Source: a virus
Strand: one strand, 5' to 3'
DNA: 48,745 nucleotides
Virus record (IMG/VR): IMGVR_UViG_3300036046_000008
Shown here: in pieces, positions 797-17,630 of the stretch
Layout of the letters: each line of letters opens with the position of its first letter
Numbering within the stretch: position 1 is the stretch's first letter
Notes under the pieces: generated by a model
Seen by the model: only the letters and a program-made list of their open reading frames with translations
Told to the model about the DNA's origin: nothing
Database searches by the model: none
Translations under genes and position numbers: made by a program

Positions 797-833
797 TAGG
801 GGGTCTCATTATATGCCCTGCAATTTTCGCGCG
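797..833 (-). promoter_or_regulatory. Conserved promoter-like element copy (TATAATGAGACCCCCTAC core)
   Basis: Minus strand reads CGCGCGAAAATTGCAGGGCATATAATGAGACCCCCTAC; abuts the tRNA 3' end and precedes gene 509..778. Confidence 0.6.
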
Positions 834-906
834 TGGGCCCCGTGGGACTCGAACCCACACCTTACGGATTAAAAGTCCGCTACTCTGCCAATTGAGCTAG
901 AGGCCC
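834..906 (-). tRNA. tRNA-Lys (anticodon UUU)
   Basis: Manual cloverleaf fold: 7-bp acceptor stem GGGCCTC/GGGGCCC, D-loop AATTGGCA, anticodon loop CTTTTAA, T-loop TTCGAGT, discriminator A; no encoded CCA. Confidence 0.85.
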
Positions 907-913
907 AAACCCC

Positions 914-2062
914 TTACAAATATGCCGAGCGACTAGACTCGTTGAAAGAACGCTTTCGCCGAAGCGCTTCGCGAATTGCCCGATCCAGAGGCGCCGCACT
1001 CATCAACGTGTAGTAATATAACTTCTCATGCTGTGAGTCAAGACGATCGATTCGTCCTTGCGCTTGCTTATACATGCGATACGAATAAGTAAGCGAATAA
1101 AAGCACATAGCGTTAGTCTCAGTGCAATTCCATCCTTCGGCCCCGGCCAGATACTGCACCAAATATACCCAGGAATCTGAGGTCGGGATGTCTTCATGAC
1201 GATGCCCGTTCCATTCCGCAACTGCTACATCTTCGGCAAGCTCCCGCAGGATCGCAAGCTCATAGTCAAAGTTGTAGAATATAACTAAACGGGGATGTTT
1301 TTCCAGCAAAGCCCTCACCGCAAGGAACCTTGTCTCGTCCGTATTCAAGACCTTTCTTGCTACGTAGAAGGTGTTGGAGATAGTCTCGATCGGTGCCTCT
1401 TTGAAGACGTCCCAACGATCCCGCCACACCTGAATATACTTCTCACGGTCGTATTGCACAGGTGTTTCAACGAACTCTCGGTCAAGATGCGATCGGTAAG
1501 TCATCCCCACAAGAATCTGCGCACGCAGCTTGTACAGTTTGGTAAGACCAACGTAGCGATCGACTTTAGGGAACTTGGTAAAAGTATTGTACACGGCATG
1601 TTGCCGGGTGAAATCCGTCTTGTTCTTGTAGAACCCATTTGCGATAAAGACCGGAACGTAATCCATCCATGTGTCGCCCGGCGTTGCCGACAACAAAATC
1701 CAAGGGTTGTCTTTGACGACCTTCAGAAACGCCTTGACCCAGGCCCCATACCCAACCAGTCGCTGTTCGTCCGCAATGAGAAATATACCCTCAGCATCCG
1801 TATATTTCGCCAAGTTCTGCCAACTGTCGACGGTCAACTCCGTTACTCCTACCAAAGCCGCCTCTCGTTCCCAGTCACCGCTGTCCCGCTTCTTCGCAGT
1901 GGTGATGACAAGCAGCTTACGGTCACTGTGGTTCCGCTGGTAATATACCAGAGCGGTCAACGTCTTGCCCGAACCCACAGGACCATACAGAATCTTGCCC
2001 GTCGACAACTTCGCGAGAGCCTCCTCCTGATGCGGATATAGCTTCACGTGTCCGAGGTCCAT
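914..2062 (-). CDS. ATP-dependent helicase (SF2-like)
   Basis: Track ORF 382 aa; Walker A GPVGSGKT, Walker B-like LIADEQ, helicase motif VI-like QGRIDR; start overlaps upstream gene by 19 nt. Confidence 0.6.
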   Translation of the reverse strand: MDLGHVKLYPHQEEALAKLSTGKILYGPVGSGKTLTALVYYQRNHSDRKLLVITTAKKRDSGDWEREAALVGVTELTVDSWQNLAKYTDAEGIFLIADEQRLVGYGAWVKAFLKVVKDNPWILLSATPGDTWMDYVPVFIANGFYKNKTDFTRQHAVYNTFTKFPKVDRYVGLTKLYKLRAQILVGMTYRSHLDREFVETPVQYDREKYIQVWRDRWDVFKEAPIETISNTFYVARKVLNTDETRFLAVRALLEKHPRLVIFYNFDYELAILRELAEDVAVAEWNGHRHEDIPTSDSWVYLVQYLAGAEGWNCTETNAMCFYSLTYSYRMYKQAQGRIDRLDSQHEKLYYYTLMSAAPLDRAIREALRRKRSFNESSRSAYL

Positions 2063-2355
2063 GCAAGATTGGACGCGTTGTTGTAGAACGTATCCCCGTC
2101 CAGATGCGCGACAAGCCCGCCCGGCTCAAAACCAGGAACGAACGCCTTTGCGACGAGGCGGTGCACTACGCGCCAGGTGCGCCCGTCTGCATTGGTCAGT
2201 TGTACGGTCAAATAGGACGTCGTCGTGGCCCCTTCCTGCAACTTGAGCAAAGCGTATGGGACTAGCCTCTTCTTTTGAATATCGTAGACGCGCCCCCAGT
2301 CGCTCACAAGGTAGTTGGGGAATTCGGGGATCGCCAACCACTGCTCGAGATCCAT
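2044..2355 (-). CDS. HNH homing endonuclease (NUMOD4-like N-terminus)
   Basis: 103 aa; IPEFPNYLVSDWGRV N-terminal motif and C-terminal HLDGD...NN..NL HNH-like motif; paralog of 48153..48689; RBS GAAAGGAAG. Confidence 0.6.
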   Translation of the reverse strand: MDLEQWLAIPEFPNYLVSDWGRVYDIQKKRLVPYALLKLQEGATTTSYLTVQLTNADGRTWRVVHRLVAKAFVPGFEPGGLVAHLDGDTFYNNASNLAWTSDT

Positions 2356-2369
2356 CGCACTTCCTTTCA

Positions 2370-2396
2370 GTAGGGGGTCTGATTATATGCTCGCAA
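2370..2396 (-). promoter_or_regulatory. Conserved promoter-like element, partial copy
   Basis: Minus strand TTGCGAGCATATAATCAGACCCCCTAC then GAAAGGAAG and ATG of 2044..2355. Confidence 0.5.
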
Positions 2397-2423
2397 GGCC
2401 GGCGGACAAAACTGTACCCCCAT

Positions 2424-2460
2424 GTAGGGGGTCTCATTATACAACATGTGATTCCCGCGA
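2424..2460 (-). promoter_or_regulatory. Conserved promoter-like element copy
   Basis: Minus strand TCGCGGGAATCACATGTTGTATAATGAGACCCCCTAC; overlaps stop codon of 2437..2895. Confidence 0.55.
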
Positions 2461-2895
2461 GACCGGCCAATAATATGGTAGATCCGCTGGCACCCCCGGC
2501 CACATCAGACTGTATCGACCTGGATCCTTCCGGATGAGATTGCTCTGATGCGAGCGATGAAATTCTTTGATCCCGTGCCACCACGGAACCTGGCGATCCG
2601 GGTATTCCTTTAGCATCTGTGTGAAATATGGCAGTAGAGAGTCTGCGTATCCACGGGTTCGCCAGACTCGGCAGGAGATCAGCCCATATGCGCAAAGCGA
2701 TCCCTCGTAGCCTTGCCACATGCGAGCTGCGGGATGCGTGCGCCACCCCTTAGTCTCCCCACGCAAAGCCTTGAGGATCTGCATCGTCTCGACCCGCTGC
2801 TTTCCAAGGCGTTTTTGGTCTAGACGTGTGAGTGATTCATAATAACCAATCTCAGGCAGAAAAGTGTTGACCATAAATATCTCCCTCCGAGGCAA
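2437..2895 (-). CDS. hypothetical protein
   Basis: Track ORF 152 aa; no motif recognised. Confidence 0.5.
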   Translation of the reverse strand: MPRREIFMVNTFLPEIGYYESLTRLDQKRLGKQRVETMQILKALRGETKGWRTHPAARMWQGYEGSLCAYGLISCRVWRTRGYADSLLPYFTQMLKEYPDRQVPWWHGIKEFHRSHQSNLIRKDPGRYSLMWPGVPADLPYYWPVSRESHVV

Positions 2896-2927
2896 AACTA
2901 AAACCCCTTGTGAGAGTTTTAGTTTTT
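2893..2927 (-). terminator. Terminator-like hairpin (conserved-loop family)
   Basis: Plus AAACTAAAAC-CCCTTGTGAGA-GTTTTAGTTT; between stop of 2938..3195 and start of 2437..2895. Confidence 0.45.
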
Positions 2928-2937
2928 GGCGTCGGCG

Positions 2938-3195
2938 CTACGGCTGCTTACCGTCTACCGCACGTTGGATAGCTCGAGCAATACGTAGAACTCGCATGTC
3001 ATCGTCCATCCAAGCTGCAGAGCTGTCCAAACCAAGTTCGCTAATTAACTCGACTTGCCCGCGCAAATACTCACGACGCATCAGTTGGTCAGCCGTGTGG
3101 TTCAAGGCACAATGCTCGTGCAGACAGATGTCTGTTAGGTCAACACCATCCCATGCACGAGCCGCTGCGTTGACTGCGTCTTGATACGAAACCAT
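2938..3195 (-). CDS. hypothetical protein
   Basis: Track ORF 2938..3303 trimmed to internal ATG with GGAG RBS, because upstream 36 codons overlap 3222..3434. Confidence 0.4.
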   Translation of the reverse strand: MVSYQDAVNAAARAWDGVDLTDICLHEHCALNHTADQLMRREYLRGQVELISELGLDSSAAWMDDDMRVLRIARAIQRAVDGKQP

Positions 3196-3221
3196 AGAAG
3201 TCTCCAAATATAGGTCGGTGA

Positions 3222-3434
3222 TTAGTGGCGAAAAATGGGGTCCAGAGAGAGGAGAACGAATTTGTGCCCTCTGGGTGTGACGTTGGTTCGAATTCCATCC
3301 CAAATAGTGCCTTTAGGCAGGGACAGCGCTCTTTCTGCTTCAGTCACGCTTGCGTAGAGAGTGTTGGTCGTCTTGTCATAGACCATACTCTTAACGCGCC
3401 TGTCAGTCGGATACGGGACGCGGTTTGATCTCAT
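3222..3434 (-). CDS. hypothetical protein
   Basis: Track ORF 70 aa; strong RBS GGAGGA before ATG. Confidence 0.5.
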   Translation of the reverse strand: MRSNRVPYPTDRRVKSMVYDKTTNTLYASVTEAERALSLPKGTIWDGIRTNVTPRGHKFVLLSLDPIFRH

Positions 3435-3447
3435 TAGGTCCTCCGAT

Positions 3448-3480
3448 TTCGTTACACAAGAAGGGGGTTGGTTTTATTCT
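3448..3480 (-). promoter_or_regulatory. Degenerate copy of promoter-like element
   Basis: Minus strand CGCGCAAAACAGAATAAAACCAACCCCCTTC upstream of 3222..3434; weaker match. Confidence 0.3.
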
Positions 3481-3948: not shown

Positions 3949-3949
3949 T

Positions 3950-4438: not shown

Positions 4439-4657
4439 AGCGCCTCCTACCGGATAATCGTGAATATAACCAGGATCCAGACCAAGACAATGAACGTGAT
4501 GACTAGCACGAATAGCAGGTCTTCCACATTTTGCTCTTTTCGCCGCAGGGGTTCCGGGCGCCTGTTGGTCGTTTAAGAGCCGCAGCTAGGTGCGAAACTT
4601 CTTCTGCGGATCCCCGACGAAAAATATAGACCATTGTTCAACGACTAAACAGTCGTT

Positions 4658-4690
4658 GTGGTCTCATTATAGACGATGTAAAATTCGCGA
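4658..4690 (-). promoter_or_regulatory. Conserved promoter-like element copy
   Basis: Minus strand TCGCGAATTTTACATCGTCTATAATGAGACCAC; adjacent perfect 8-bp hairpin at about 4638..4657; no ORF of 60 aa or more downstream. Confidence 0.5.
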
Positions 4691-5764: not shown

Positions 5765-6043
5765 TCAACGATAATAGACGCCGGCAACGACGACGCCTTT
5801 CCAACGCACTGGCCCAGCGTGCACCTTAGTGGACCAGCTTTTACATTGTGCGAGAACAGGGCAATCGTAGCAGATGTTCTGGGCCTGCCTTACAAGACCC
5901 TGGCGCGCCCAGTTACCTCTGCCGTCAAATATAAACGAGTCTGGAAACTGCGCGCACAACGCATCTCCCATCCATTCATACTTTTTTACAACTTCGAACA
6001 AAGGGCTATATACGTCGCTGTCAAACACTAGCCTCATCCCCAT
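5765..6043 (-). CDS. WhiB-like (Wbl) Fe-S transcription regulator
   Basis: Four-Cys pattern C-x27-C-x2-C-x5-C (DALCAQ ... ICYDCPVLAQC), size typical of Wbl; ATG second codon of track ORF. Confidence 0.55.
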   Translation of the reverse strand: MGMRLVFDSDVYSPLFEVVKKYEWMGDALCAQFPDSFIFDGRGNWARQGLVRQAQNICYDCPVLAQCKSWSTKVHAGPVRWKGVVVAGVYYR

Positions 6044-6523: not shown

Positions 6524-9500
6524 TTAGCTAACGAACGCTTCGAACGAGCCGAAACGTTCAATGGTGTCTACGGCGTCTTCGACCAGAGCTTGATAGAACG
6601 ATTTATCGATGTTCTGCCATTCCGATGGACCCAATTCCTTAACGACGGCGGCCTCCTTCCAGAAATATCCCTTTGTCCCAGACAGCGCGTACTTGCGCCC
6701 GTCTTTGACTCGGTAAAGCGTACCGCCGCCTGTGCCTTCGCGGACCGGAACGAAGCTTCCAGACCGTCCGACAAAGTGCATACGCTCGTCGCCGAAATCG
6801 ATGTAGATGGCGCCATTGGTTACCGAACGGACTTCGCACAAGTCTTGGAGGTGGATCTCGTCATGCGTGAACAAAGTTCGATAGACATATGGGTGTTGGA
6901 ATTGAGCGCCGACAGCGTCCCATTTGTCGCCTTCTCGGGCGATGTAAACGGCGTCGTTGACAAGACAGAATTTCTCGTATGTCTTCTCGTGGTCGAACGT
7001 GTACCCGTATCGCTCGCCAAATTCGGTTACAAACTGAATAATATCGGGCGTGGCATTAGGGATCTTGACTGAGTCCGTCTTAATATGCACTACCGGGAAG
7101 CCTTGTTCCTGGATGGCATGCTTGAGATCAATCATGAACAAAGCGCCACGCTTCGCGACGATGTTGTCTTTATTTCGAGGATCGCGGAACACCGTATCAA
7201 ATTTGGCACTGGTTAGGCCATAGACAATATTGATGACGATCTTCAACGCATGAGACAAGTCTTTGGCGGACTGGGTATCAGCGTCTGAGATAAAAGAAGC
7301 TAATTTTCCATCTAGCATCTGCGCCGCAGCAGAATAATCGCCTTTCTTAATGGCGAGCCGCGCGTCGAGCAGATCGTTAAAGTTCTTTGTATAAGGCCCG
7401 AACAAATTTAGAAGGCGAATAGACGTCGGGTGCATCGAGGCAACGTCAAGAACCGCAACATTCTCGTACATCCCTGGTTCAGCGTATACGTACCCGCCTT
7501 CACTAGGATCCTCGCCACGGTAAGAGCTTTTGCCGCCCTCGAAAATATAACCCGGAAACAACTCGCTGAGATCTGTATAGACGAATGAGCCTTGAGGAGA
7601 GGGGTCTCCCTCAAATACGATTCGCGCCGTGTGCTTCTGCGTAGTGTCGTTGACGCTGAGCCCGCTGATCGAAGCGAGAATCTGTCTCGCGACAAAGTCC
7701 TGGGCCCTGGACTCCGCGACTTTCTCCGTTGCAACGACATCGTTGGCGCAATAGTCGGCAACTTCGATCCAACGCTCCTCTGGCACCGGCTCGTCCCACG
7801 GGTGGTCGAGCTCTTTGTGGACGATGCCGAGCTCGATCTGGAACTTCTTCAGTCCTTGCTTCTTGGACGAGTAGTCGTACACATCGGCGTAAGATAGCCC
7901 ATACGCCTCGCCGAAGGTGGCGTTGCGGTTCTTGTCCACAATCAAAGCTTGACTGAGTCTATACAAACGCTCATTGTCGTAACCCAAGAACGCAGCGTAC
8001 AAAATATGGTTGTCATAGCGTCTGTTGTTGAACCCCACGAGCTTTTGAGCAAGAAGAGGTTCGATGTCATCGGGCTTCGGATTGATCATCCGCACAACAG
8101 GGTGATCGCCCTCAAACTTCCAACACAACACGAACAGGTTAGGGTACACCTCAACGTCGAAATATACGAGCGCGTCGCCTTCTCCGGAGATAGAGACTGT
8201 ACGATCCTCCGACTTAAACTTCATCTCCCTGACAAGCCGCAGACATTCCAACGGTCGGTTCGTGCTGTTGTTGGCGAAAGCCACGATCGAGGACCGCAGA
8301 TCTGTGACATCATAGCTCAAGTCAGAAGAATATGCGTCATCCAAGACCTTCTTGATGAAGTCGATTGACGACTTCGTGTTAGGATGAATCTCCTTTCTCA
8401 AATTTCGAGCAATCATCTCTCGAAGCCCGCGCTCAGATTTGATCTGTTTGACATCGATCATCTTTCTCTCCTTCATAGGCAACCCGCTTGTGATTTGCGC
8501 AACTTCATGGTCGTTGCATCGCGACAGCCTACGGCGAAGAGACGAGTCCCCGAGCAAAGTTTTAATCTCAATGCCCGGAGAGTACTCGTTATCTAGTTCT
8601 TTGATGTCGCCGTTGTAAATATAATGCAGATGCAGCCCTTTCCCGCTCATACTCAACTCAGTATAGGTTGGCGGCCACGCACTAGCAGCTTCAAGATTCT
8701 TATCGAGGGACTTCTCTCCACTTTCATCGCGCAAATCGAAATCGATCACAATATGATTCTTAGGAATCTTGACGTAATGCACCAGCGAAGTGTCCAGATC
8801 GGTCAGGGTGGTCTTGACTAAGCCCCAACGCTTACTAGGCTTACCTGTTTCTGTGGCGTACTGAGCCGGCATGTCTGCCAAAATATCGTCAAGCAACGAT
8901 CGGCGTTGAGCCAGATTGATTGAGAACGATTTAGGCGACGACGGAGCGACCCCAGTCAACTTCTCCAGCTTGAAGTCTTTGAACAAGCTGTACACCTCCT
9001 GACCGTCGACCATCGTTCTCTCTACGAAATTCTCGTAGTAATTCATCATCTCGTTACGAAATATCTGCATCTGCATCGGTTTGTTGTTTGACTCGGTGCA
9101 GAATTCCTTATACAAAGCATAGGCCCTTTTAAGGGTAATCCCGTCCGGCGCTTTCAACTCGGGCAAATATGCTTCGACGAAGTTGTAGAACACGTTGGTT
9201 GAATACATCATCTTCGTGGGGCGGTAGTTGTCATAATAATTCTTGCCCATGCTTTGATACACTCGAAGACAGTGCGATGCAATAGCGCCGAGTTCAAATT
9301 CGATCCTCGACATCAACACTTGATAATGATCAAACGTGTGCAAATTTCCGGTTGGTTGGACATCGATCAGTCGCCGCAATAAACCAGACCGAGAGTCACT
9401 AATCTTGACGGGGTTGTTAGTGCCCATAAACAGAAACGTGTTGATGCGTACATTATACTGAGATTTATACTTCTCGTTGATCACCATATTCTCATGAGAG

Positions 9501-10774: not shown

Positions 10775-11550
10775 CCATCATCACTCCGAAACTTTCGGAC
10801 TTTCCGGAAGGCGCGTGCTGCATCGTGCTGCAGACTATCTTCCTCGTCATACCCCAGAACGTTCTTCTCCCACGAGCCGTAGTCGATAGTGATCAGAACG
10901 TCTAGGCGAAGCTGGTCGTTACGAATATAGACACAAACATTGTCGTCCGAATACTCGTCGAAACGACTGAGATCGGCGTATTCCCCAATTGTGCGCTCAG
11001 GCAACGAGACGACGGTATCTGTCTCATCGACTAGAGCTCCGTCTTCTTCGTAATAGGTCCACTCGACCTGAGCATTGCTGGGTTCGTTGTAGCGAAACTC
11101 TTCTTCTGTGATCAAATATGGAGTGCGGCCCGGCTCTGGGCGTTCGTCCGATACCGGATGATAAGACGCTTCTTGCAGTTTTTCGAGTGGGATCGGATCG
11201 TCCTTATTGGGGCCGTCGGCGTTAGAACGCTCCGGCACTGTATAGAGTCGGGCGTAATCTGTATAGACTGCGTAATCGGTGTCGACCTCTCCCAGCGGTG
11301 CCGGCTTGGCGTTCTCCTCGCCGTTTGGGGCCGGCACGACCTCGTATTCCTCTCGCTTATACAGAGTTTTGTAATATAGCTGGGCTCGTTTCACCTCCTT
11401 TTGCAGAATATCCTCAGAGCGCTCTGCCATAGCTTGCCGCACGAGAATTCCGCCCACGGTTGCTCCGACGCCGAGCCCCAACGCGTAGAAGCCAAACGGG
11501 GACGTTACCCTATGAGCAAGCATCGCCCGAATCAGGTTCATAGAATTCAC
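10771..11550 (-). CDS. hypothetical membrane-anchored protein
   Basis: 259 aa; N-terminal hydrophobic helix then acidic domain. Confidence 0.55.
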   Translation of the reverse strand: MNSMNLIRAMLAHRVTSPFGFYALGLGVGATVGGILVRQAMAERSEDILQKEVKRAQLYYKTLYKREEYEVVPAPNGEENAKPAPLGEVDTDYAVYTDYARLYTVPERSNADGPNKDDPIPLEKLQEASYHPVSDERPEPGRTPYLITEEEFRYNEPSNAQVEWTYYEEDGALVDETDTVVSLPERTIGEYADLSRFDEYSDDNVCVYIRNDQLRLDVLITIDYGSWEKNVLGYDEEDSLQHDAARAFRKVRKFRSDDG

Positions 11551-12500
11551 ACCTCTCGAAAGTTAACTCGGTCGACAATGACGCCATCCACGTTAAAATC
11601 GAGAAACACGGACAGCTCGCGCCCGTTTACAAAATCCCGCAAACGCGGATCATCTCCGTGCAGGAACCCGAAGTCAATATAGTTGTCTCCGGTTCCGTCC
11701 TCGTTGATGCGCCAGCCAACAACCTGCCCAGCTTTGGACCGTTCCATTCCGAGCATGTCGTAGACCTCGTTCAGGAACACATGTCCCTTTGCCTTAAGCA
11801 AATCGTTCGCATAGTTCTGCTGAGCGCGCAGGAACAGATAGTTGGCGTGCGGCACGTCCTGCCAATGCTGGTTGTACTCGTCAAAGAAACGAGCATACGG
11901 CGAATATGCGGTCTCTCCGATACGCTTACGCTCAACTACCTCTTTCGAACCTGTGTCTTTGTTCTCGATCGCCACGCGCTCAGAATATGCGTCGTAACGC
12001 AGGTCACGCTCAACTTCCTCACCGAATTCCTGCCGAACCCGATCGCGATACAGCTTGAACGCCCGGTCCAGTCCATTGTATGCCACCGTCAGGGCAGCCA
12101 CACGAGTGTTGAGGATGAAGTGCGCACGAGCAAACGCGGCGACGGTCAGGGTGCCCACCAAGATTGTGGGGGCGTACAGCCGACCCACGTCAACAAAGGT
12201 CCGCGTGTAAATATAGATGCGATCCCGCAGTGCATCTTCCTCCGTATAGTGATGCTTGGCCACCATCTCGGAGTCTTGCTCGACAGTGCGCACGTTCTGC
12301 AGGTCCTGCTGCGTCTTCTGCAGAACCTCATCGACGCGGAGAGTCGCCCGCGACGCCAGAACGGTGGTTGCCGCAAATCCTACCACGCCCGCACCGAACA
12401 GAATATGAGGCGAGTTAACCTTGCCCGCCAAGACCAGCCGCCCCATCTTTTGGGAGACGGCTGGTGACATGGCTTTTCTAATAAGTTGCAACTTGTTCAT
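11547..12500 (-). CDS. membrane protein, paralog of 15329..16117
   Basis: Track ORF trimmed to ATG at 12500 with GAAAGGA RBS; shares N-terminal TM pattern and C-terminal blocks with 15329..16117. Confidence 0.55.
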   Translation of the reverse strand: MNKLQLIRKAMSPAVSQKMGRLVLAGKVNSPHILFGAGVVGFAATTVLASRATLRVDEVLQKTQQDLQNVRTVEQDSEMVAKHHYTEEDALRDRIYIYTRTFVDVGRLYAPTILVGTLTVAAFARAHFILNTRVAALTVAYNGLDRAFKLYRDRVRQEFGEEVERDLRYDAYSERVAIENKDTGSKEVVERKRIGETAYSPYARFFDEYNQHWQDVPHANYLFLRAQQNYANDLLKAKGHVFLNEVYDMLGMERSKAGQVVGWRINEDGTGDNYIDFGFLHGDDPRLRDFVNGRELSVFLDFNVDGVIVDRVNFREV

Positions 12501-12510
12501 CTTAGTCCTT

Positions 12511-13197
12511 TCAGTCCAGTGGTTCGGGTTGCGAGAGATCGAGCAAATATCCGGACGAGATCCGCCGGACTTTGGCGCCACTTAGATCGTACCAACCCCA
12601 ATTGGCGTCGGTGTACGCCGGAGTCAGATCCAGCAGGTTGTAGAGATCTGAGACGGACACGTGCTGATAGCGATCGAGCAGATCATACATCCGATCCAGG
12701 ACTTCGTGCGCCTCGGCCCGTGTTGTTAGAACCACCTCTTCAAAATTGTGGCTAGTACGGGCTCTCCGACTCAACTCTCGGCGAGGCTGTCTGTCGTCCG
12801 GAAAAGGCGGACGCGTTCGGCTACCACGCCCGGCGTACTGCTCGTACTGAGTGTAAACTCGCGGTCGGCCACCACGCCCAGACCGAACTCTCGGATTGTA
12901 GTAGTGACTGTCCCCGAATAAGAGCCGCTCAATTCCGCCGCTCACCGCATCAGTGATCATGTCTTTCGCAGCGGGAATAAGCACGTCAAGAACCACATAC
13001 TGTCGAACGTTCTGCGCATCGGCCCCTAGGAACGTCTCACGGACTCGACTGCCAAGAGACCGTTTTCTACGAACCACACGGTTGACAACGACCTTCTCGA
13101 TCTTCTTGTCTTCAGCCGGCGGGGCGGGAGGAGGCGCCGGCTGCTGGAACGCTGTGCGCGTGTTTGGAGGAAACTCTTCCATAATATAACCTTCCAT
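12511..13197 (-). CDS. hypothetical protein
   Basis: Track ORF 228 aa; Pro-rich N-terminus. Confidence 0.5.
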   Translation of the reverse strand: MEGYIMEEFPPNTRTAFQQPAPPPAPPAEDKKIEKVVVNRVVRRKRSLGSRVRETFLGADAQNVRQYVVLDVLIPAAKDMITDAVSGGIERLLFGDSHYYNPRVRSGRGGRPRVYTQYEQYAGRGSRTRPPFPDDRQPRRELSRRARTSHNFEEVVLTTRAEAHEVLDRMYDLLDRYQHVSVSDLYNLLDLTPAYTDANWGWYDLSGAKVRRISSGYLLDLSQPEPLD

Positions 13198-13202: not shown

Positions 13203-13239
13203 AAAAATAAAAACTAAAGATCCTTGTGGGGATCTTTAG
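13203..13239 (-). terminator. Intrinsic-terminator-like hairpin (conserved-loop family)
   Basis: Plus CTAAAGATCC-TTGTGG-GGATCTTTAG preceded by A-run, so U-tract on minus-strand RNA; downstream of 13253..13516. Confidence 0.55.
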
Positions 13240-13252
13240 CTCTGAGAGGTTC

Positions 13253-13516
13253 TCAGGGGGTAGGGGTGTCCTCAGTCGTTCCAGAGGTGTCAGGATCGAG
13301 GATCGTGCACAGTGCATTGTCAACATAGTTGGCAGCGTACTGTCCGGCAATCGCGCCCAACGTGATGGAGCCGATAGCAATCTGCATTTTCTGCAAAGGG
13401 CTATCGTCTTCCATTCCGTTAGACGAGAAAGTCCGGCTAGTAGCGCCAGCCACACTAGAGGCGACGACATACCGTACAAACGATCGAGCGATCCGAATTT
13501 TGGTCTCGGTGCGCAT
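13253..13516 (-). CDS. hypothetical protein
   Basis: Track ORF 87 aa; promoter element and GAAAGGAAG RBS upstream. Confidence 0.55.
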   Translation of the reverse strand: MRTETKIRIARSFVRYVVASSVAGATSRTFSSNGMEDDSPLQKMQIAIGSITLGAIAGQYAANYVDNALCTILDPDTSGTTEDTPTP

Positions 13517-13533: not shown

Positions 13534-13570
13534 GTAGGGGGTCTCATTATACGGCATGCAATTTTCGCGA
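13534..13570 (-). promoter_or_regulatory. Conserved promoter-like element copy (closest to consensus)
   Basis: Minus strand TCGCGAAAATTGCATGCCGTATAATGAGACCCCCTAC then GAAAGGAAG then ATG. Confidence 0.6.
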
Positions 13571-13710: not shown

Positions 13711-14223
13711 TTACGCGCGATTCTGAAGGTGCGCGAGAAGCTGCTCTCTCGACATCGACTCCAACTCCGCTTGCGACAGTGTCGTCTCTGTGATCTCGGG
13801 CTCAGCCAAAGGAACGGTTTCGACCGTAGCGCGCTGCGCCTGCTGAATAAGATCGTTAGGCATCACCGCCAACATGAACTGAGCGGCCTTCTCCGGATTT
13901 TCGAACAAAGAGAACAGAAACGCGTCATACGCCGCGGTGTCCTTGAACGCCATCCAAATATCATCCGACTTAGAGAAGCGCTGCCCGTCAGCGCTACGCT
14001 CCCCGTAGGATAGCCGCACAATCTCCTTGACCAGTGCCAAAATCTTGGTAAGTTCCGGCAGAGTTACCTCGCGAACGTCCCCCTCGAGCATGGACTGGAT
14101 TTCCTGCATCTTCTCTCCAAGATGCAGATGGTCGACTAGCTCAGTCTTGGTGATGTTGAAATATAGCGTGCTTGTCTGCGTATTCCCGTTGAAATCTTCG
14201 TAGGTGATAGTCTGCTTATACAT
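13711..14223 (-). CDS. hypothetical protein
   Basis: Track ORF 170 aa. Confidence 0.6.
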   Translation of the reverse strand: MYKQTITYEDFNGNTQTSTLYFNITKTELVDHLHLGEKMQEIQSMLEGDVREVTLPELTKILALVKEIVRLSYGERSADGQRFSKSDDIWMAFKDTAAYDAFLFSLFENPEKAAQFMLAVMPNDLIQQAQRATVETVPLAEPEITETTLSQAELESMSREQLLAHLQNRA

Positions 14224-14566: not shown

Positions 14567-14580
14567 AACAACTCCTCCCA

Positions 14581-14616: not shown

Positions 14617-14627
14617 CTTTTGTGGAC

Positions 14628-14855
14628 TCAGATCTCGTCGGGGGTCGACTCGTCCGTCTTCTCCGGCTTGTTCTCGCAGTCGTCCGACTCCTCGGAGGTC
14701 GTCGACGTGAGAGCGTAGCCGAGCAGAAGGCCGGCGGCAAGCGTACCGCCAACAATGGCGACGCGCTTCCCAAGGGCCTTCCAGTCGACCACGATCACGG
14801 TCTTCGACTCGCTAGGAGCGTCGGCCGCGGGAGCGGGGGTCGGGGTGTGGGACAT
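14628..14855 (-). CDS. small membrane protein
   Basis: Track ORF 75 aa; central hydrophobic helix; promoter element upstream. Confidence 0.55.
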   Translation of the reverse strand: MSHTPTPAPAADAPSESKTVIVVDWKALGKRVAIVGGTLAAGLLLGYALTSTTSEESDDCENKPEKTDESTPDEI

Positions 14856-14871
14856 GGTGTTTCCTTCCTGT

Positions 14872-14912
14872 GAGGGGGTTTGGTCTCACTATAGAGGATG
14901 TAATTTTCGCGA
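14872..14912 (-). promoter_or_regulatory. Conserved promoter-like element copy (variant TATAGT)
   Basis: Minus strand TCGCGAAAATTACATCCTCTATAGTGAGACCAAACCCCCTC. Confidence 0.5.
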
Positions 14913-15290
14913 TTACTCGGTCTCGCAGAGCTCGAGAATATACGCTCCCGCCTCGTCAACGACGTCGCCAATTGTCAGATCCTCCGGCAACTTTGCCAGA
15001 AGGTCGTTGTCTGGCGCGAGCTCGGATACCTCACTAACCAAGGTGTCGCGATCCGGCAACTCATCACCCGCAAAGGTGAACAACATGGCGCCCATCTGCT
15101 CTGACGTGTCCACGCCAAAGAAAGCCAGCGCCTGGCAGAATTCCTCGGGGTCCTGCCCACCCTCGTAGAACACCTCATCCAGCTCGGCCCGCATTTCTTC
15201 TTGCCAAGTGGGGCCGCTATCCGCGCAGCCCGCCAAGGTCAAGATGCCGACCGTGGTAATTGCCGCGTACTTGCCAATCTTCTTCCACAT
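14913..15290 (-). CDS. putative lipoprotein
   Basis: 125 aa; signal peptide with lipobox LTLAGC; acidic mature part. Confidence 0.6.
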   Translation of the reverse strand: MWKKIGKYAAITTVGILTLAGCADSGPTWQEEMRAELDEVFYEGGQDPEEFCQALAFFGVDTSEQMGAMLFTFAGDELPDRDTLVSEVSELAPDNDLLAKLPEDLTIGDVVDEAGAYILELCETE

Positions 15291-15304
15291 TGTGATGCTC
15301 CTTT

Positions 15305-15335
15305 AAATATAGGGGGTTTAAATGTTGTCTAACTC
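15305..15335 (-). promoter_or_regulatory. Degenerate copy of promoter-like element
   Basis: Minus strand CATTTAAACCCCCTATATTTAAAGGAGCA before ATG of 14913..15290. Confidence 0.3.
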
Positions 15336-16117
15336 ACACGGTTGTAGTGTCGTGTCGGACTCACCATAAAATCCATGACAATGCACGGCCGATCGTCGTC
15401 TGCCATGGTGGTAGAGAACCGCAACTCCAAGAGCAGGTCTGAATTCCAACCGATGTCGTCAGAGAACTTCGTTAGATCTAGACCAAGTTGATTGTACAGA
15501 TCGCTCAGAGACGCGTAGAAGTCGTTGATGATCTTCTTGTTAATGTAGTTTTCTGCTCTCCTCATTGCCTCCATATCACTGTAGAAATATCGCCCTGCGT
15601 AGAGGTCATAGCACAGCACTGTGCCTACACCTTGAATAATGGGTTGATTGCGAACAGGGTTATCACGTACCCGATCTTGCGCAATCTCGTCTCTCAGTGC
15701 CCGTTCTTTACTTGAGCCCAGCTGCTCGGTAACCTTGTGCTTATACTCGGTGAACGCGCGCTCTGTCAGAGAATATGCAGCGACCATGGCGGCTGTCCGA
15801 CGATTACTGACATATACGGCGGCGATCAGGCACGCGCAAGAGACTACACCACTTGCTACCGCGGGAATATAAAGACGCCACGTCAACGAGACGATGTCTT
15901 CTTGAGCCAACGGTTCGGCAACGACATAGTTCTGAGCTGCGTCGTCTGCCCGCCGGTCTTTCTCCTCCTCGAGAATATAGGCGGCTCGAAAACCGGCTTG
16001 TGACGCAAGCACCGTCGTTGTAACAACCCCGGCAAGCCCTACAGTTGCAAGTAATGTAGGCGCATTGTCGACGAGAAACTTTTGCGACATCCGCATCACA
16101 TCAGTCAACATCGTCAC
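15329..16117 (-). CDS. membrane protein, paralog of 11547..12500 (start uncertain)
   Basis: Track ORF 262 aa; shared TM and C-terminal blocks with 11547..12500. Confidence 0.55.
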   Translation of the reverse strand: MTMLTDVMRMSQKFLVDNAPTLLATVGLAGVVTTTVLASQAGFRAAYILEEEKDRRADDAAQNYVVAEPLAQEDIVSLTWRLYIPAVASGVVSCACLIAAVYVSNRRTAAMVAAYSLTERAFTEYKHKVTEQLGSSKERALRDEIAQDRVRDNPVRNQPIIQGVGTVLCYDLYAGRYFYSDMEAMRRAENYINKKIINDFYASLSDLYNQLGLDLTKFSDDIGWNSDLLLELRFSTTMADDDRPCIVMDFMVSPTRHYNRVS

Positions 16118-16283
16118 TCCTCTCCATCATCTGTTCTAATAGTCGAATTTCACGTTCACGCTTTATTTGGTAATAATATGCTCGCGTCAATAAGACCGTG
16201 ACAAACGAGCATAAGAGAAACGACGTACTGAGAAAGATATATGCCGCTAAAACCCAGATGTCGCCTGGAACCGACGATCTCAC
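16101..16283 (-). CDS. small membrane protein
   Basis: 60 aa; GTG start after AGGAGGA RBS; hydrophobic core. Confidence 0.5.
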   Translation of the reverse strand: MRSSVPGDIWVLAAYIFLSTSFLLCSFVTVLLTRAYYYQIKREREIRLLEQMMERSDDVD

Positions 16284-16399
16284 TGGTCCTCCTGTAGTTG
16301 TCGGCGGTGACGCAGTTCGATCAGATCTTCAGCCATGAGCGACAGGAAATATGGCCCGAACATCAACAGAAGAATAATGGCGGAAATGACGTCGCCCAT
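16280..16399 (-). CDS. small hydrophobic protein (39 aa, not in track)
   Basis: Manual translation MGDVISAIILLLMFGPYFLSLMAEDLIELRHRRQLQEDQ; GAAGGGAAG RBS; stop overlaps next start as GTGA; coordinates approximate. Confidence 0.35.
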   Translation of the reverse strand: MGDVISAIILLLMFGPYFLSLMAEDLIELRHRRQLQEDQ

Positions 16400-16415
16400 T
16401 TGTGCTTCCCTTCAA

Positions 16416-16456
16416 ACAAAAAAAAGAAAACCTTAGCCCCGTGTTAGGGGGCTAAA
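16416..16456 (-). terminator. Intrinsic-terminator-like hairpin (conserved-loop family)
   Basis: Plus A-run then TTAGCCCC-GTGTTA-GGGGCTAA; just downstream of stop of 16461..16643. Confidence 0.5.
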
Positions 16457-16460
16457 GTCA

Positions 16461-16643
16461 TCAGACCTCCAGGTCCTCAAGAGCAGCCTTGAGCTTGGAG
16501 ACGGTCTTGTTCGTCTTGGTCTTCAGATCAGCAACCTCTTGCTCAACCTGCTGCTTACCCTTGACGGCTGCGTATGCAATGCCCAGGGTGGCGGCGAGGT
16601 TGGTAGTGGTCACGATCAGGAGTGCGACGGTGGAGCCGTTCAT
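16461..16643 (-). CDS. small membrane protein
   Basis: Track ORF trimmed to ATG at 16643 (MNGSTVALL...); the track N-terminus is translated promoter sequence. Confidence 0.55.
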   Translation of the reverse strand: MNGSTVALLIVTTTNLAATLGIAYAAVKGKQQVEQEVADLKTKTNKTVSKLKAALEDLEV

Positions 16644-16659
16644 TTCAATCTTCCTTTCG

Positions 16660-16696
16660 GTAGGGGGTCTCATTATACAGCATGCGATTCTCGCGA
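16660..16696 (-). promoter_or_regulatory. Conserved promoter-like element copy
   Basis: Minus strand TCGCGAGAATCGCATGCTGTATAATGAGACCCCCTAC then CGAAAGGAAG. Confidence 0.6.
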
Positions 16697-16709
16697 TGCC
16701 ATCGGCTCC

Positions 16710-16744
16710 AAAAACAAAACCATAGATCCTTGTGGGGATCTATA
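16710..16744 (-). terminator. Intrinsic-terminator-like hairpin (conserved-loop family)
   Basis: Plus ATAGATCC-TTGTGG-GGATCTAT with flanking A-run. Confidence 0.5.
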
Positions 16745-16760
16745 GCTTTAGAACTACTGG

Positions 16761-16904
16761 TTAACGGGTCTTGGCCAAACGGCGCCGAGCAACGATGAGC
16801 AGTCCAACGACGGCCGCGCCGTACGCAACAGTGATAGTGTTGTGAACGGTCGGGCTCTGGTTGTAGTGGTCAACGTTCTTCTGGCAGAGTTCAGTCCAGG
16901 TCAT
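16761..16904 (-). CDS. small protein with C-terminal hydrophobic segment (47 aa, not in track)
   Basis: Manual translation MTWTELCQKNVDHYNQSPTVHNTITVAYGAAVVGLLIVARRRLAKTR; AAGGAGAAG RBS; coordinates approximate. Confidence 0.4.
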   Translation of the reverse strand: MTWTELCQKNVDHYNQSPTVHNTITVAYGAAVVGLLIVARRRLAKTR

Positions 16905-16920
16905 GGTCTTCTCCTTAAGT

Positions 16921-16955
16921 AGTGGGTCTCATTATATGGCATGCAATTTTCGCGA
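16921..16955 (-). promoter_or_regulatory. Conserved promoter-like element copy
   Basis: Minus strand TCGCGAAAATTGCATGCCATATAATGAGACCCACT. Confidence 0.55.
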
Positions 16956-16961
16956 CCTAAC

Positions 16962-16995
16962 CAAGACTAAGACTCCGTGTGGGAGTCTTGTCTTA
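16962..16995 (-). terminator. Hairpin (conserved-loop family)
   Basis: Plus AAGACTCC-GTGTGG-GAGTCTT. Confidence 0.4.
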
Positions 16996-17001
16996 AGACG
17001 G

Positions 17002-17121
17002 CTATCGAACGACAGCCATGTCTTCGATCCGGCGGGTTGCGCGGGTCTGGCGACGCTTCTCTCTAAGGTCTTCGTCAAAGAGATAGGTCACCACAGTCGC
17101 GCGAGCGGCGGAAAGGGTCAT
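17002..17121 (-). CDS. small basic protein (39 aa, not in track)
   Basis: Manual translation MTLSAARATVVTYLFDEDLREKRRQTRATRRIEDMAVVR; GAAAGG RBS; coordinates approximate. Confidence 0.35.
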   Translation of the reverse strand: MTLSAARATVVTYLFDEDLREKRRQTRATRRIEDMAVVR

Positions 17122-17138
17122 GGTCTTTCCTTTCATTA

Positions 17139-17175
17139 GTAGGGGGTCTCATTATACTACGTGTTATTTCCGCGA
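17139..17175 (-). promoter_or_regulatory. Conserved promoter-like element copy
   Basis: Minus strand TCGCGGAAATAACACGTAGTATAATGAGACCCCCTAC. Confidence 0.55.
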
Positions 17176-17235
17176 CCTTCCTACAATTTTTGCTCCGGGG
17201 AATTTTTAGATTTTCAATTTATCCGAAGTGTGGGC

Positions 17236-17268
17236 AAAAGCTAAAACTCCTTGTAGGGAGCTTTAGCC
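17236..17268 (-). terminator. Hairpin (conserved-loop family)
   Basis: Plus CTAAAACTCC-TTGTAG-GGAGCTTTAG; downstream of 17296..17580. Confidence 0.45.
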
Positions 17269-17295
17269 TTTACCTTCAATCGTCCGGGGTTACGG

Positions 17296-17580
17296 TCAGC
17301 GCAGAATACGCAAGAAAGGCAGAGCCTTCGAGGTGATGACGTGAGTTCGTTCATAACCGACAATCACCAGAATTCCGGCAAGGTTACCAAGTACGGCAGC
17401 CCAAGCGTCCGGGCTCACGCGCTGAGGGCGGTCAATTTCCTTCAGCGCATAAAGCTTCGTTAGCTGGTCTGCCATCGCGGCATACTCGTCAGAGTCTGAT
17501 GTCAAGCCGGCCATTTCCGAGAAAATCTCGTCAATAGCCTCATCAAGCTTCGACTTCTCTTTAGTCTTACGGCGCAACAT
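17296..17580 (-). CDS. hypothetical protein
   Basis: Track ORF trimmed to ATG at 17580 (MLRRKTKEK...); upstream codons are translated promoter sequence. Confidence 0.55.
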   Translation of the reverse strand: MLRRKTKEKSKLDEAIDEIFSEMAGLTSDSDEYAAMADQLTKLYALKEIDRPQRVSPDAWAAVLGNLAGILVIVGYERTHVITSKALPFLRILR

Positions 17581-17593
17581 GGTGCTCCTTTCG

Positions 17594-17630
17594 GTAGAGG
17601 GTGTCATTATATGACGTGTATCAATCGCGG
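17594..17630 (-). promoter_or_regulatory. Conserved promoter-like element copy (variant)
   Basis: Minus strand CCGCGATTGATACACGTCATATAATGACACCCTCTAC then GAAAGGAGCACC ATG. Confidence 0.5.

Follow-up and report, generated by a model that had tools for sequence, protein, structure and literature searches.

A repeated 37-bp cassette, most likely a promoter with its leader, ahead of early and replication genes in a phage lineage encoding a single-chain RNA polymerase

A 37-bp cassette, most likely a promoter joined to a leader, precedes the early and replication genes of the phage represented by the window, the whole 48,745-nt stretch of viral DNA that was analyzed. The window is a cos siphovirus of the Scap1 / Arthrobacter AM / Gordonia DJ / ReqiPepy6 / Lactococcus 1706-P092 / FP_oengus lineage. 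Because the cassette is conserved across this large lineage, all of which encodes a single-chain RNA polymerase, it is most likely that polymerase's own promoter. On balance we favor the view that the elements are phage early/middle promoters with a standard leader and ribosome-binding site, and that the product of ORF 44540-47221, not host sigma-A alone, reads them.

An earlier inspection of the same DNA (the sequence-only reading) had described a conserved minus-strand element repeated between 0.8 and 17.6 kb, and our analysis bears this out, with nine full copies and one half copy on the gene strand (Table 1). The exact 37-mer occurs once in the window, with two further copies at ≤3 mismatches and none expected in shuffles, and the core TATAATGAGACC at ≤1 mismatch is found ten times, always on the minus (gene) strand and never on the plus strand of the window. 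Counts by position delimit conserved blocks at -19 to -15 from TATAAT (TCGCG), at -7/-6 (CA) and 3′ of the hexamer (GAGACCCCCTAC), and agree with the earlier remark that the canonical -35 position (-23 to -18) is without conservation. The element is fused to the Shine-Dalgarno (SD) sequence, and the start codon lies 23–27 nt past the hexamer in most copies. Two scoring matrices, built from the sites of other phages alone with pieces of the window left out of training, recover the same nine window sites: a 43-column matrix at 28–45 bits, against a shuffle maximum of 12.9, and a promoter-only matrix at 22–32 bits, the next best site scoring 5.4 and the best plus-strand site 4.2. The matrix scan also agrees with the statement that all copies lie in the non-structural arm, since it finds zero in the structural block (44046 to 17621).

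Some individual assignments had to be revised. The copy formerly placed at 2370-2396 has a hexamer and leader (TATAAT + CAGACCCCCTAC + GAAAGGAAG) but lacks the upstream box, and is therefore a half copy, below threshold in both matrices. It lies 54 nt past copy 8, for which a ribosome-binding site had been claimed; directly 3′ of copy 8 there is instead a hairpin, CCCCCTACATGGGGG, with a T-run (2416-2432), and then the half copy. The TATAAT of copy 8 includes the TAA stop of an upstream denV-like ORF (2437-2895). Copy 7, reported near 4658-4690, keeps a complete promoter half, the highest scoring of all in the promoter-only matrix, but its leader differs (GAGACCACAACGACTGTTTAGTCGTTG), folding into a hairpin of -14.7 kcal/mol with no obvious SD ahead of a 42-codon ORF from 4634. 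Two supposedly degenerate copies, at 3448-3480 and 15305-15335, score at noise level and consist of box-like or leader-like fragments alone; they may be decayed relics. A possible eleventh copy, TCCCG..ACC..TATAAT-AGATAAAGGA, is listed for its synteny only, its 4.6 bits being within noise. It precedes the endonuclease/Cas4-exonuclease/polymerase operon, and many relatives have clear copies at the syntenic place, ~0.95 kb 5′ of the polymerase gene. Since the window is a circular permutation, this site still falls in the non-structural arm in phage coordinates. In the 17.6–16.4 kb stretch, terminator-like hairpins delimit short promoter-gene units.

Table 1. Element copies and associated features of the window. 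Scores are for the 43-column matrix unless stated otherwise.
Feature	Position	Strand	Start of hexamer	Score (bits)	Remarks
Copy 1	17594..17630	-	17611	28.2; 22.6 (promoter-only)	CCGCGATTGATACACGTCATATAATGACACCCTCTAC; target 94-aa ORF 17580..17296, phrog_5818; first element past the tail and lysis genes
Copy 2	17139..17175	-	17156	41.0	Target 39-aa ORF 17121..17002
Copy 3	16919..16955	-	16936	39.2	Target 47-aa ORF 16904..16761; hairpin 16969-16989 upstream
Intrinsic terminator	16715-16750	-			15-bp stem + T-run; copy 4 begins 19 nt downstream; hairpin 13210-13243 near-identical
Copy 4	16660..16696	-	16677	37.1	Target 60-aa ORF 16643..16461, then terminator 16429-16459
Copy 5	14872..14912	-	14893	33.0	TATAGT variant; leader with 4-nt insertion; target 75-aa ORF 14855..14628; box adjoins stop codon of upstream gene
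Copy 6	13534..13570	-	13551	45.0	Same as consensus of the sequence-only reading; target 87-aa ORF 13516..13253, then terminator 13210-13243
Copy 7	4654..4690	-	4671	32.3 (promoter-only)	Complete promoter half
Copy 8	2424..2460	-	2441	41.9	
Half copy 9	2370..2406	-	2387		Target HNH endonuclease gene 2355..2044
Copy 10	796..832	-	813	35.8	Target 89-aa ORF 778..509; adjoins tRNA-Lys 3′ end (833-906)
Possible eleventh, degenerate copy	~48114-48150	-		4.6 (promoter-only)	
WhiB-like protein	5765-6028			28.8 (Pfam; cutoff 23.6)	
Single-chain two-barrel RNA polymerase	44540..47221	-			893 aa; SGADFDGDTV motif (ADFDGD); PHROG 4291

The protein earlier called 'RNAP-like' is, by motif and modelled fold, a two-barrel RNA polymerase, its fold matching QDE-1 and the Thermus phage non-virion RNA polymerase. 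Fused to it are helix-turn-helix (HTH) domains, namely a helical/HTH region at the N terminus and, at the C terminus, an HTH that resembles sigma-70 region 4, and many members of the polymerase family have Pfam Sigma70_r4 or r4_2 matches. The C-terminal HTH shows no visible co-variation with the A or G form of the box. Polymerase, primase-polymerase and element are co-inherited across the whole lineage (253 versus 250 records), so that co-occurrence is uninformative on whether the polymerase in particular is the reader. Elements of this promoter class also stand upstream of the polymerase gene itself, both in the window (copy 796-832, beyond whose 89-aa ORF follow small genes, an HNH gene, the endonuclease, the Cas4 exonuclease and the polymerase; site 48114-48150) and in relatives (L002:46006; L005:27684). 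The polymerase is therefore not the sole reader unless it is delivered in the virion.

From the sequence we infer the reader, the start position and the domain-to-box contacts as follows. The polymerase would contact duplex DNA at the box, TCGC(A/G), and at the invariant CA through one or both of its fused HTH domains, and would open the A/T hexamer as T7 RNA polymerase does its TATA. Transcription would start at the G after the hexamer or within about 2 nt of that G, making GAGACCCC(C)TAC a conserved initially transcribed sequence at the head of an unstructured leader of ~25 nt with a terminal SD, GAAAGGA. The first polymerase molecules could come from host sigma-A initiating weakly at the copies with TATAAT, after which positive feedback would take over. 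Alternatively, the polymerase may be carried in the virion.

The sequence-only reading had also argued that the copies are not a set of independent housekeeping promoters, and the wider distribution agrees: the element is a lineage-wide cassette, better conserved than the surrounding proteins. Every member examined has the architecture TCGC(A/G) - 6 A/T-rich nt - ACA - 5 nt - TATAAT - GAGACCCC(C)TAC - SD - ATG, and several gene-strand copies with this architecture and spacing occur in Streptomyces phage Scap1 (61% GC, TATAGT variant), Arthrobacter phage Circum (45% GC), Gordonia phage Gravy, Lactococcus phage P092 (33.5% GC) and Faecalibacterium phage FP_oengus. An unchanged 18-mer, TATAATGAGACCCCCTAC, is shared by 22 viral contigs, their proteins being only 25–65% identical to the window's at loci with detected homologs; a search of 596 Gb of bacterial and archaeal genomes gave no match to this 18-mer. 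About 20 IMG/VR contigs retrieved with it also carry the architecture. At least one gene-strand element match is present in 43 of 80 RNAP-homolog loci from IMG/VR. Of 50,697 phage records, 181 contain matches to a 44-nt version; all of these are on the gene strand, and a record usually has 7–11 of them, down to 1 in some Arthrobacter and Microbacterium records. These matches include 55/55 Gordonia, 54/54 Streptomyces, 4/4 Rhodococcus and 4/4 Microbacterium records, and none falls outside polymerase-bearing genera.

Host RNA polymerase could instead read TATAAT as a '-10 only' sigma-A promoter and start ~7 nt on, inside GAGACCC; the phage polymerase would then transcribe the 26-kb structural operon in the manner of YonO, and the extra conservation would reflect a conserved leader with an auxiliary function. 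We consider this unlikely, and the evidence runs in both directions. Actinobacterial sigma-A is commonly active without a -35. The window hexamer, a perfect TATAAT in nine of ten copies and TATAGT in the tenth, is the sigma-70/sigma-A -10 and as such counts against the phage polymerase as reader, as do the intrinsic terminators between units, whose hairpins and T-runs are host-polymerase signals. The polymerase gene ends the promoter-driven arm, as is usual for an early polymerase gene that the host transcribes, and the structural block, besides lacking the element, is almost gapless between genes, likely gene-calling artefacts aside. In two Gordonia genome announcements the motif was interpreted as a sigma-70 -10, and the characterized relative YonO serves a single late operon from one promoter, not many early units (PMC5467207). 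Host reading offers no reason, however, for the retention of TCGCR, the A/T tract and CA at an exact spacing in phages whose hosts range from Streptomyces to Lactococcus and Faecalibacterium. FP_oengus and related contigs keep CGCGAAAAA-N2-CA-N5, with box and spacing unchanged, next to hexamers of the form C(T/C)TTAT (e.g. CTTTAT), TGTTAT or TTTTAT; none has the A at position 2, the -11 A equivalent, that recognition needs, and they are therefore a poor fit to a sigma -10. The P092 copies have no -35 at 16–19 bp and no TG extension. Host reading also fits poorly with the confinement of the 44-nt matches and the absence of the 18-mer from bacterial genomes. A tRNA-like gene, with an aberrant anticodon call, begins 1 nt beyond one FP_oengus copy, and in five to seven copies the SD starts 2–5 nt and the ATG 14–18 nt past the hexamer, which leaves too little room for a +7 start and fits transcription beginning right after the hexamer. 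The CTTTAT hexamer, the Lactococcus copies and the position of the tRNA-like gene thus suggest the phage polymerase over host sigma-A.

A second alternative keeps host RNA polymerase and TATAAT as its -10 and adds a phage factor that would bind a box at about -30 (TCGCR ... CA), either as MotA/AsiA does at T4 middle promoters or like WhiB-type activators on sigma-A region 4. With TATAAT as -10, the box is centred ~30 nt 5′ of the predicted start, as it is in T4 middle promoters, and candidates exist in the window's WhiB-like protein and in conserved arm proteins of unknown function (two copies of DUF6353, phrog_4079, phrog_4678, phrog_4695). We nevertheless find such a factor distinctly improbable. 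A Pfam scan that took in all but a few short ORFs of the arm matched no MotA, AsiA or sigma family gene; the box sequence differs from the MotA box; and the WhiB-like gene has no homolog in the other loci compared, including four complete relatives and 50/58 kb of FP_oengus, so that it is not a lineage-wide factor. The non-sigma hexamers of the FP_oengus clade also tell against it. For the dedicated specificity factor of the sequence-only reading, then, those hexamers and the Lactococcus copies give indirect support, and the Pfam scan none for the MotA- and sigma-like forms.

That the element is not primarily a promoter is scarcely credible. A start-associated or RNA-level element (a translation enhancer or processing site, SAS/ESAS-like) or a recombination-spread cassette would account for its SD fusion and the distance of 23–27 nt to the start codon in most copies, for the leader half (CCCCCTA ... 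AAAGGAG) without promoter half at 15305-15335, and for GAGACCCCTAC without a TATA hexamer in Scap1 (23994 and 24841). Yet the best-conserved half has promoter anatomy and is located 5′ of any plausible transcript; in copies near the polymerase operon it is joined to a different leader. Copies also stand after terminators, ahead of the tRNA-like gene in FP_oengus and before tRNA-like sequences in P092; the standard leader has no significant predicted structure, and an Rfam search with the element gave no match.

In the Gordonia cluster DJ phages Vardy and Conley, a 50-bp / 43-nt intergenic motif with 5 copies in one cluster has been described as a sigma-70 -10 that 'may regulate gene expression' (PMC9671010, PMC10868162). 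It is the same, homologous element: both are intergenic, lie in the central small-gene region, contain TATAAT and end at the start codon, and our 44-nt Gordonia-type consensus matches Vardy 33734-33777 with 100% identity. Those announcements are silent on the polymerase gene, on the spread of the element through the whole lineage, on its upstream box and on the Firmicute-phage variants. As with the promoters of T7-like single-subunit RNA polymerases, there are many near-identical copies conserved over 25–40 bp through the start site, with an A/T-rich upstream part and a specificity part, then a TATA-type melting box directly before the start. The T7 phi10 promoter reads TAATACGACTCACTATAGGGAGACC. 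The initially transcribed GAGA(CC) is likewise conserved (Scap1 CTATAGTGAGACC, T7 CTATAGGGAGACC), the start here being a predicted one. Unlike in T7, the polymerase is of the two-barrel kind and not related to T7 RNA polymerase, the hexamer is a sigma -10 consensus, and the polymerase gene is preceded by this very promoter class, a place that host promoters take in T7. T4 middle promoters, with a MotA box at -30 and a sigma-70 -10, share the good -10 hexamer, the missing -35 and a box ~30 nt above the predicted start, but have another box sequence; here, conservation runs on through spacer and leader, and one clade has a non-sigma hexamer. Start-associated sequences (SAS/ESAS), reportedly described by Pope et al. 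2011 (cited in PMC7302621) in Cluster K mycobacteriophages, are similarly repeated directly 5′ of actinophage start codons and include the RBS; the SAS is said to be 13 bp without a -10-like box, whereas here the best-conserved half is promoter-like and occurs with other leaders or before tRNA-like genes. A precedent is Thermus phage P23-45, in which the two-barrel non-virion polymerase gp64 is the proposed reader of a multi-copy motif 5′ of early genes (PMC10770324), although that motif is GC-rich and the first transcripts come from a virion polymerase fused to the tape-measure protein. No such fusion is seen in the window, where the TMP ORF has a TMP_3 domain alone. SPbeta YonO has a single late promoter with unknown sequence determinants (PMC5467207). 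What sets the present polymerase family apart from gp64 and YonO is its fused HTH domains, which resemble sigma region 4.

The repeated element that the sequence-only reading had picked out in the window is real. Its 12-nt core TATAATGAGACC, allowing one mismatch at most, occurs ten times and always on the minus strand, which carries all genes of the window, and the 37-mer first proposed is present once exactly and twice more with up to three mismatches, where 100 shuffles gave an expectation of zero. Alignment on the hexamer resolves four conserved blocks: TCGCG at -19 to -15 relative to the hexamer, an A/T-rich hexanucleotide, a nearly invariant CA at -7/-6, and GAGACCCCCTAC after the hexamer; the complete cassette reads TCGCR-N6-ACA-N5-TATAAT-GAGACCCC(C)TA(C/T). 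Position matrices built from sites of other phages only, with two loci that are pieces of the window excluded, score nine of the sites at 28-45 bits over 43 columns (shuffle maximum, 12.9), and a promoter-only matrix returns the same nine at 22-32 bits; no other site on the two strands scores above 5.4, a value within shuffle noise. The tenth copy keeps the hexamer and leader and lacks the remainder of the element. Two stretches previously listed as degenerate copies contain box-like or leader-like fragments only, and their noise-level scores with the promoter matrix rule them out as functional promoters.

The copies are intergenic, lie in the region of small genes past the tail and lysis genes, and end at a Shine-Dalgarno (SD) sequence and start codon; a role other than that of a promoter seems to us very improbable. 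The first copy directly follows the last tail and lysis genes, and between 17.6 and 16.4 kb four consecutive small genes have one copy each, with hairpin and T-run terminators between several of these units. That the copies form one promoter class restricted to the non-structural arm is borne out, the structural block having none. The ribosome-binding site expected after copy 8 is replaced by a hairpin and T-run directly after it, followed 54 nt downstream by a half copy that precedes an HNH endonuclease gene, and the TATAAT of copy 8 contains the TAA stop codon of an ORF for a denV-like pyrimidine-dimer glycosylase. Copy 7 has a hairpin as its leader and a 42-codon ORF. The standard leader showed no structure on folding, and a search of Rfam returned tRNA as the sole match. 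Two long, nearly identical terminator hairpins, which have AGATCCCCACAAGGATCT in common and then a T-run, are a second repeated regulatory element of the arm. The arm also encodes two paralogous DUF6353 proteins that are conserved throughout the lineage and, in its middle, a protein matching the Pfam family Phage_TAC_17 ('tail assembly chaperone', E 1e-39).

The window is contig IMGVR_UViG_3300021517_000007 of IMG/VR. Half of it, compared by megablast with 50,697 phage records, gave no DNA-level match, and relatives were reached through proteins only. These place the window in a lineage that includes phages of Streptomyces (BI, with Scap1), Arthrobacter (AM/AU/AW), Gordonia (DJ), Rhodococcus (ReqiPepy6/Poco6), Microbacterium (EL) and Curtobacterium as well as Lactococcus 1706/P092 and Faecalibacterium FP_oengus, and membership is documented by a syntenic polymerase, primase-polymerase, helicase and TerL and by a homologous cos end. 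At the latter, a G-run/C-run inverted repeat with GAGACCCCC inside precedes CATATCGCCGCGTCCCT followed by AAAATTT, or in full CATATCGCCGCGTCCCT followed by AAAATTTCTCCGGCGGG, which is the homolog of both physical ends (right and left) in Scap1, Circum and Gravy. Because this sequence is homologous to the physical ends of relatives, the window is a circular permutation of a cos genome, whose order in phage orientation is given in the table. The stretch that separates the structural operon from the polymerase gene was searched for a late promoter and none was identified: GAGACCCCCTCC belongs to the conserved inverted repeat of the cos end, and a box-like site nearby scores -2.6 bits. TCAAAATGGA(A) ranks with the most frequently repeated 10-mers of the window and also of FP_oengus; several occurrences are gene starts (...CAAA ATG GAA...), and it may be a start-codon context common to structural genes.

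Coordinates of the element and associated features; copies are numbered from 17594-17630 (copy 1) down to 796-832 (copy 10)
Feature	Genome or locus	Position	Strand	Remark
Core TATAATGAGACC, at most one mismatch	Window	17611, 17156, 16936, 16677, 14893, 13551, 4671, 2441, 2387, 813	-	
Copy 7	Window	4654-4690	-	Leader at 4654-4666
Copy 8	Window	2424-2460	-	Overlap with denV-like ORF stop codon, region 2437-2463
Tenth, partial copy	Window	2370-2396	-	
Rejected 'degenerate' copies	Window	3448-3480, 15305-15335		
denV-like glycosylase ORF	Window	2437-2895	-	
WhiB-like protein	Window	5765-6028	-	PF02467
DUF6353 proteins	Window	15329-16111, 11547-12581	-	
Phage_TAC_17 protein	Window	13711-14223	-	
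Long terminator hairpins	Window	16715-16750, 13210-13243	-	
TCAAAATGGA(A)	Window	42238, 40132, 36331, 29629, 19267	-	
Polymerase ORF	Window	44540-47221	-	893 aa, ~100 kDa; PHROG 4291
Weak copy before polymerase gene	Window	48114-48150		
Leader of polymerase-operon copy	Window	48060-48125	-	About 65 nt
Same leader	L035, L036, L038, L044, L073	~9040-9120		
cos end	Window	44190-44265	-	Junction at ~44206
Rejected late promoter GAGACCCCCTCC	Window	~44230		
Rejected late promoter, box-like	Window	44141		
Order 1: left end	Window			
Order 2: structural operon	Window	44046 to 17621		Almost no intergenic gaps
Order 3: element-bearing arm	Window	17630 to 1, resuming at 48745		
Order 4: HNH, endonuclease, Cas4 exonuclease, large ORF, one small gene	Window	Large ORF 47221-44540		
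Order 5: right end	Window			
Copies followed by tRNA-like sequences	P092 (L004)	19992-20080, 20380-20470		
Heptamer TGATATT	FP_oengus (L005)	1-50000		39 on gene strand, 2 on other

The main new result is that the element is distributed across the whole lineage. The most frequent 10-mers of the relatives are pieces of it, and it reads CTCGCAAGTTTTACAGCCTCTATAGTGAGACCCCTAC in Scap1 (Streptomyces), tCGCGTAAATTACAcGGGCTATAATGA in Circum (Arthrobacter), TCGCAGAAATTACACGTCCTATAATGAGACCCCTATGAAAGGA in the 10 copies of Gravy (Gordonia), TTTTACATACCCTATAATGA(A/G)AGG in the 10-11 copies of P092 (Lactococcus), where an upstream A/T-rich part takes the place of TCGC, and CGCGAAAAA-N2-CA-N5-C(T/C)TTAT-GGAAGG in the 14 copies of FP_oengus (Faecalibacterium), with the same spacing of box, CA and hexamer in all five. 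The exact 18-mer TATAATGAGACCCCCTAC is found in 24 stretches on 22 IMG/VR contigs; where homologs were detected on these contigs, the primase-polymerase, helicase, DUF6353 and other proteins are just 25-65% identical to those of the window, so that conservation is far stronger in the noncoding element than in the proteins. The same 18-mer has no match in 596 Gb of bacterial and archaeal genomes, in which uniform chance would yield about 17. A 44-nt query of the Gordonia type matched 181 phage records. Every match lies on the gene strand, and a record typically has 7-11 of them, some Arthrobacter and Microbacterium records as few as one. These matches are confined to genera that bear the polymerase and, compared as per-genus counts rather than accession lists, equal the polymerase counts (Gordonia 55, Streptomyces 54, Rhodococcus 4, Microbacterium 4). 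Eighty further polymerase-bearing IMG/VR loci gave 58 matches on the gene strand versus 5 on the opposite strand; in many of these loci a copy precedes the polymerase gene by about 0.95 kb, and the window has a weak counterpart of it. The element is thus specific to polymerase-encoding genomes and conserved beyond the needs of a host promoter, and the lineage co-inherits other genes too. Polymerase-less relatives, which would amount to a natural knockout, were sought and none occurs in the collection; the 253 records with the primase-polymerase and the 250 with the polymerase are essentially one set, and since every member of the lineage has both polymerase and element, co-occurrence does not single the polymerase out. 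The G+C content of the lineage, far below that of the hosts, could be explained by promoters of this kind.

The copy upstream of the endonuclease/Cas4/polymerase operon has its own leader (...AAGCC(C)TTTTTCTTTTTG...) in place of GAGACCCC; it is conserved between phages and might regulate expression of the polymerase, and for the window version the predicted fold is not significant (z 0.23). In P092, tRNA-like sequences begin 9 nt after two of the copies; their acceptor stem, D arm and T arm are good, a proper anticodon arm is lacking, and ARAGORN makes no call on them. In FP_oengus the strand-biased heptamer TGATATT often lies within genes or directly at a start codon (...TGATATTTTATG).

The ORF that we take as the candidate reader has the sequence SGADFDGDTV, the signature for metal binding in the largest subunit of cellular RNA polymerases, and weak Pfam matches to RdRP and to several helix-turn-helix (HTH) families, including a C-terminal Sigma70_r4_2; the phage thus encodes a DNA-dependent RNA polymerase of its own. 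Its relatives fill at least 8000 protein clusters, many with precomputed Sigma70_r4 or r4_2 matches, and phmmer found no match to it among PDB sequences, so that a fold search was needed. This evidence agrees with the prediction of Koert et al. (bioRxiv 10.1101/842583), who named as the lineage's signature gene a YonO/crAss-like polymerase with N- and C-terminal HTH domains and left its promoters unexamined. Near the N-terminus, which is predicted to be disordered (residues 8-29, pLDDT ~31), the motif HYG..RRSGRYPWGSGG is invariant in all 53 aligned homologs, and it could be a peptide for docking or targeting, for instance in packaging or toward a host partner.

Which enzyme reads the element can be approached from the parts that have been kept. 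The box, the tract, the CA and their spacing are maintained in phages of hosts from two phyla; sigma-A requires the hexamer only. In favor of host involvement, it may be said that the hexamer in the window is a perfect -10 element (TATAAT in nine of ten copies, TATAGT in one), that promoters without a -35 are normal in Actinobacteria, and that the polymerase gene itself is downstream of the same promoter class. The copies in the window have neither a -35 hexamer 16-19 bp upstream nor a TGn extended -10: positions -23 to -18 carry no information beyond the start of the TCGCG box, a consensus scan found a 4-of-6 first hexamer in only two copies, and TG precedes the hexamer in none. The Lactococcus copies of P092 likewise lack both. 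In the FP_oengus clade and the contigs L101, L103-L105 and L108, the hexamer is CTTTAT, TGTTAT or TTTTAT, and this loss of the A at position 2 argues against sigma-A as sole reader, which we consider unlikely. Involvement of the host would also accord with the host-type intrinsic terminators between units and with a copy-free structural block that has the look of a single long operon; YonO serves a single late operon (PMC5467207).

The sequence-only reading had suggested a dedicated phage specificity factor. The comparative evidence favors a dedicated phage-encoded reader. No match to sigma, MotA or AsiA was found among the arm ORFs scanned. The arm does encode a WhiB-like protein (28.8 bits, cutoff 23.6), which was considered as the factor; it has no homolog in the other loci compared, four complete relatives and 50 kb of the 58-kb FP_oengus genome among them, and being confined to this window it cannot be a lineage-wide factor. 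Host polymerase redirected by a phage factor seems to us an improbable reader, a non-promoter role being less probable still. The WhiB-like gene does suggest an actinobacterial host for this uncultivated phage. We infer a link between motif and polymerase, and the partly supported reading is that the dedicated reader is most plausibly the two-barrel enzyme with its fused HTH domains. Reading by the phage polymerase, including a dual use in which sigma-A would fire first at the same sites, appears to us slightly more probable than not. Comparison of the recognition helix of the C-terminal HTH with the fifth base of the box (A/G) revealed no evident co-variation.

The position of the start site may bear on the same question. 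In five to seven copies the SD begins 2-5 nt and the ATG 14-18 nt past the hexamer, which leaves no room for a start at +7 and hints at one closer to the hexamer than 6-8 nt downstream. One FP_oengus copy ends 1 nt upstream of a tRNA-like gene, the only such case found when further tRNA genes fused to copies were sought to fix the start. A start directly after the A/T box, with T7-like geometry, would fit. We tentatively propose, with slightly less than even confidence, that a self-sufficient single-chain two-barrel polymerase has its cognate promoter in the cassette and initiates right after the hexamer. The polymerase would read the cassette through its own HTH domains, which resemble sigma region 4, would begin transcription directly after the hexamer, and would use the same promoter grammar in phages of Actinobacteria and Firmicutes. 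Since the polymerase gene is itself under promoters of this class, infection would begin either with enzyme delivered in the virion or with a handover at the shared sites, in which host sigma-A initiates at TATAAT before the phage enzyme takes over.

Separate publications already describe the motif and the polymerase prediction. Our literature search, which did not cover the older papers on ReqiPepy6 and Lactococcus 1706/P087, returned no paper that links the two or describes the upstream box, the lineage-wide conservation or the Firmicute variants, and no defined promoter for the YonO-like single-chain two-barrel polymerases of ordinary siphoviruses; the promoter determinants of YonO are stated to be unknown (PMC5467207). 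The present candidate can be read straight from genomes, being short, strongly conserved and represented by natural variants in three host groups, and it is present in hundreds of cultured SEA-PHAGES isolates. If the proposal is true, this would be the first defined promoter for a very large polymerase family. With such a candidate at hand, the way in which a minimal relative of the cellular polymerase locates promoters, having no separate sigma factor, becomes accessible to direct test. A 37-bp promoter together with a single gene might also be put to use for orthogonal expression in Actinobacteria.

Phage polymerases with specific promoters of their own are already known from T7, N4, phiKZ/AR9 and P23-45. 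T7-group promoters consist of an A/T tract, a specificity segment and TATA, then G and a conserved GAGACC, and the overall layout of our element resembles theirs. The leader of copy 7, GAGACCACAACG, shares a 12-nt identity with the initially transcribed region of the T7 phi10 promoter (...CACTATAGGGAGACCACAACGG...), and CTATAGTGAGACC in Scap1 is one base away from the T7 sequence CTATAGGGAGACC; both resemblances are probably convergence or chance. The element differs from a T7-like promoter in its polymerase: no T7-type RNA polymerase was matched by Pfam in the ORFs scanned, and the only polymerase-like ORF is of the two-barrel type. It differs from T4 MotA middle promoters in having TCGCR in place of a TGCTT-type box at -30. 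The closest counterpart is the 50-bp intergenic motif of Vardy, known from Gordonia cluster DJ announcements (PMC9671010, PMC10868162), with which the window element agrees in architecture, multi-copy gene-strand layout and lineage membership; the 44-nt query matches Vardy at 100%, and the two are therefore the same motif. Assignment of the window copies to the class of phage-polymerase promoters is partly supported, their reader and start site being proposals from sequence, and a precedent exists in Thermus phage P23-45, in which a single-chain two-barrel polymerase is proposed to read a multi-copy early motif (PMC10770324).
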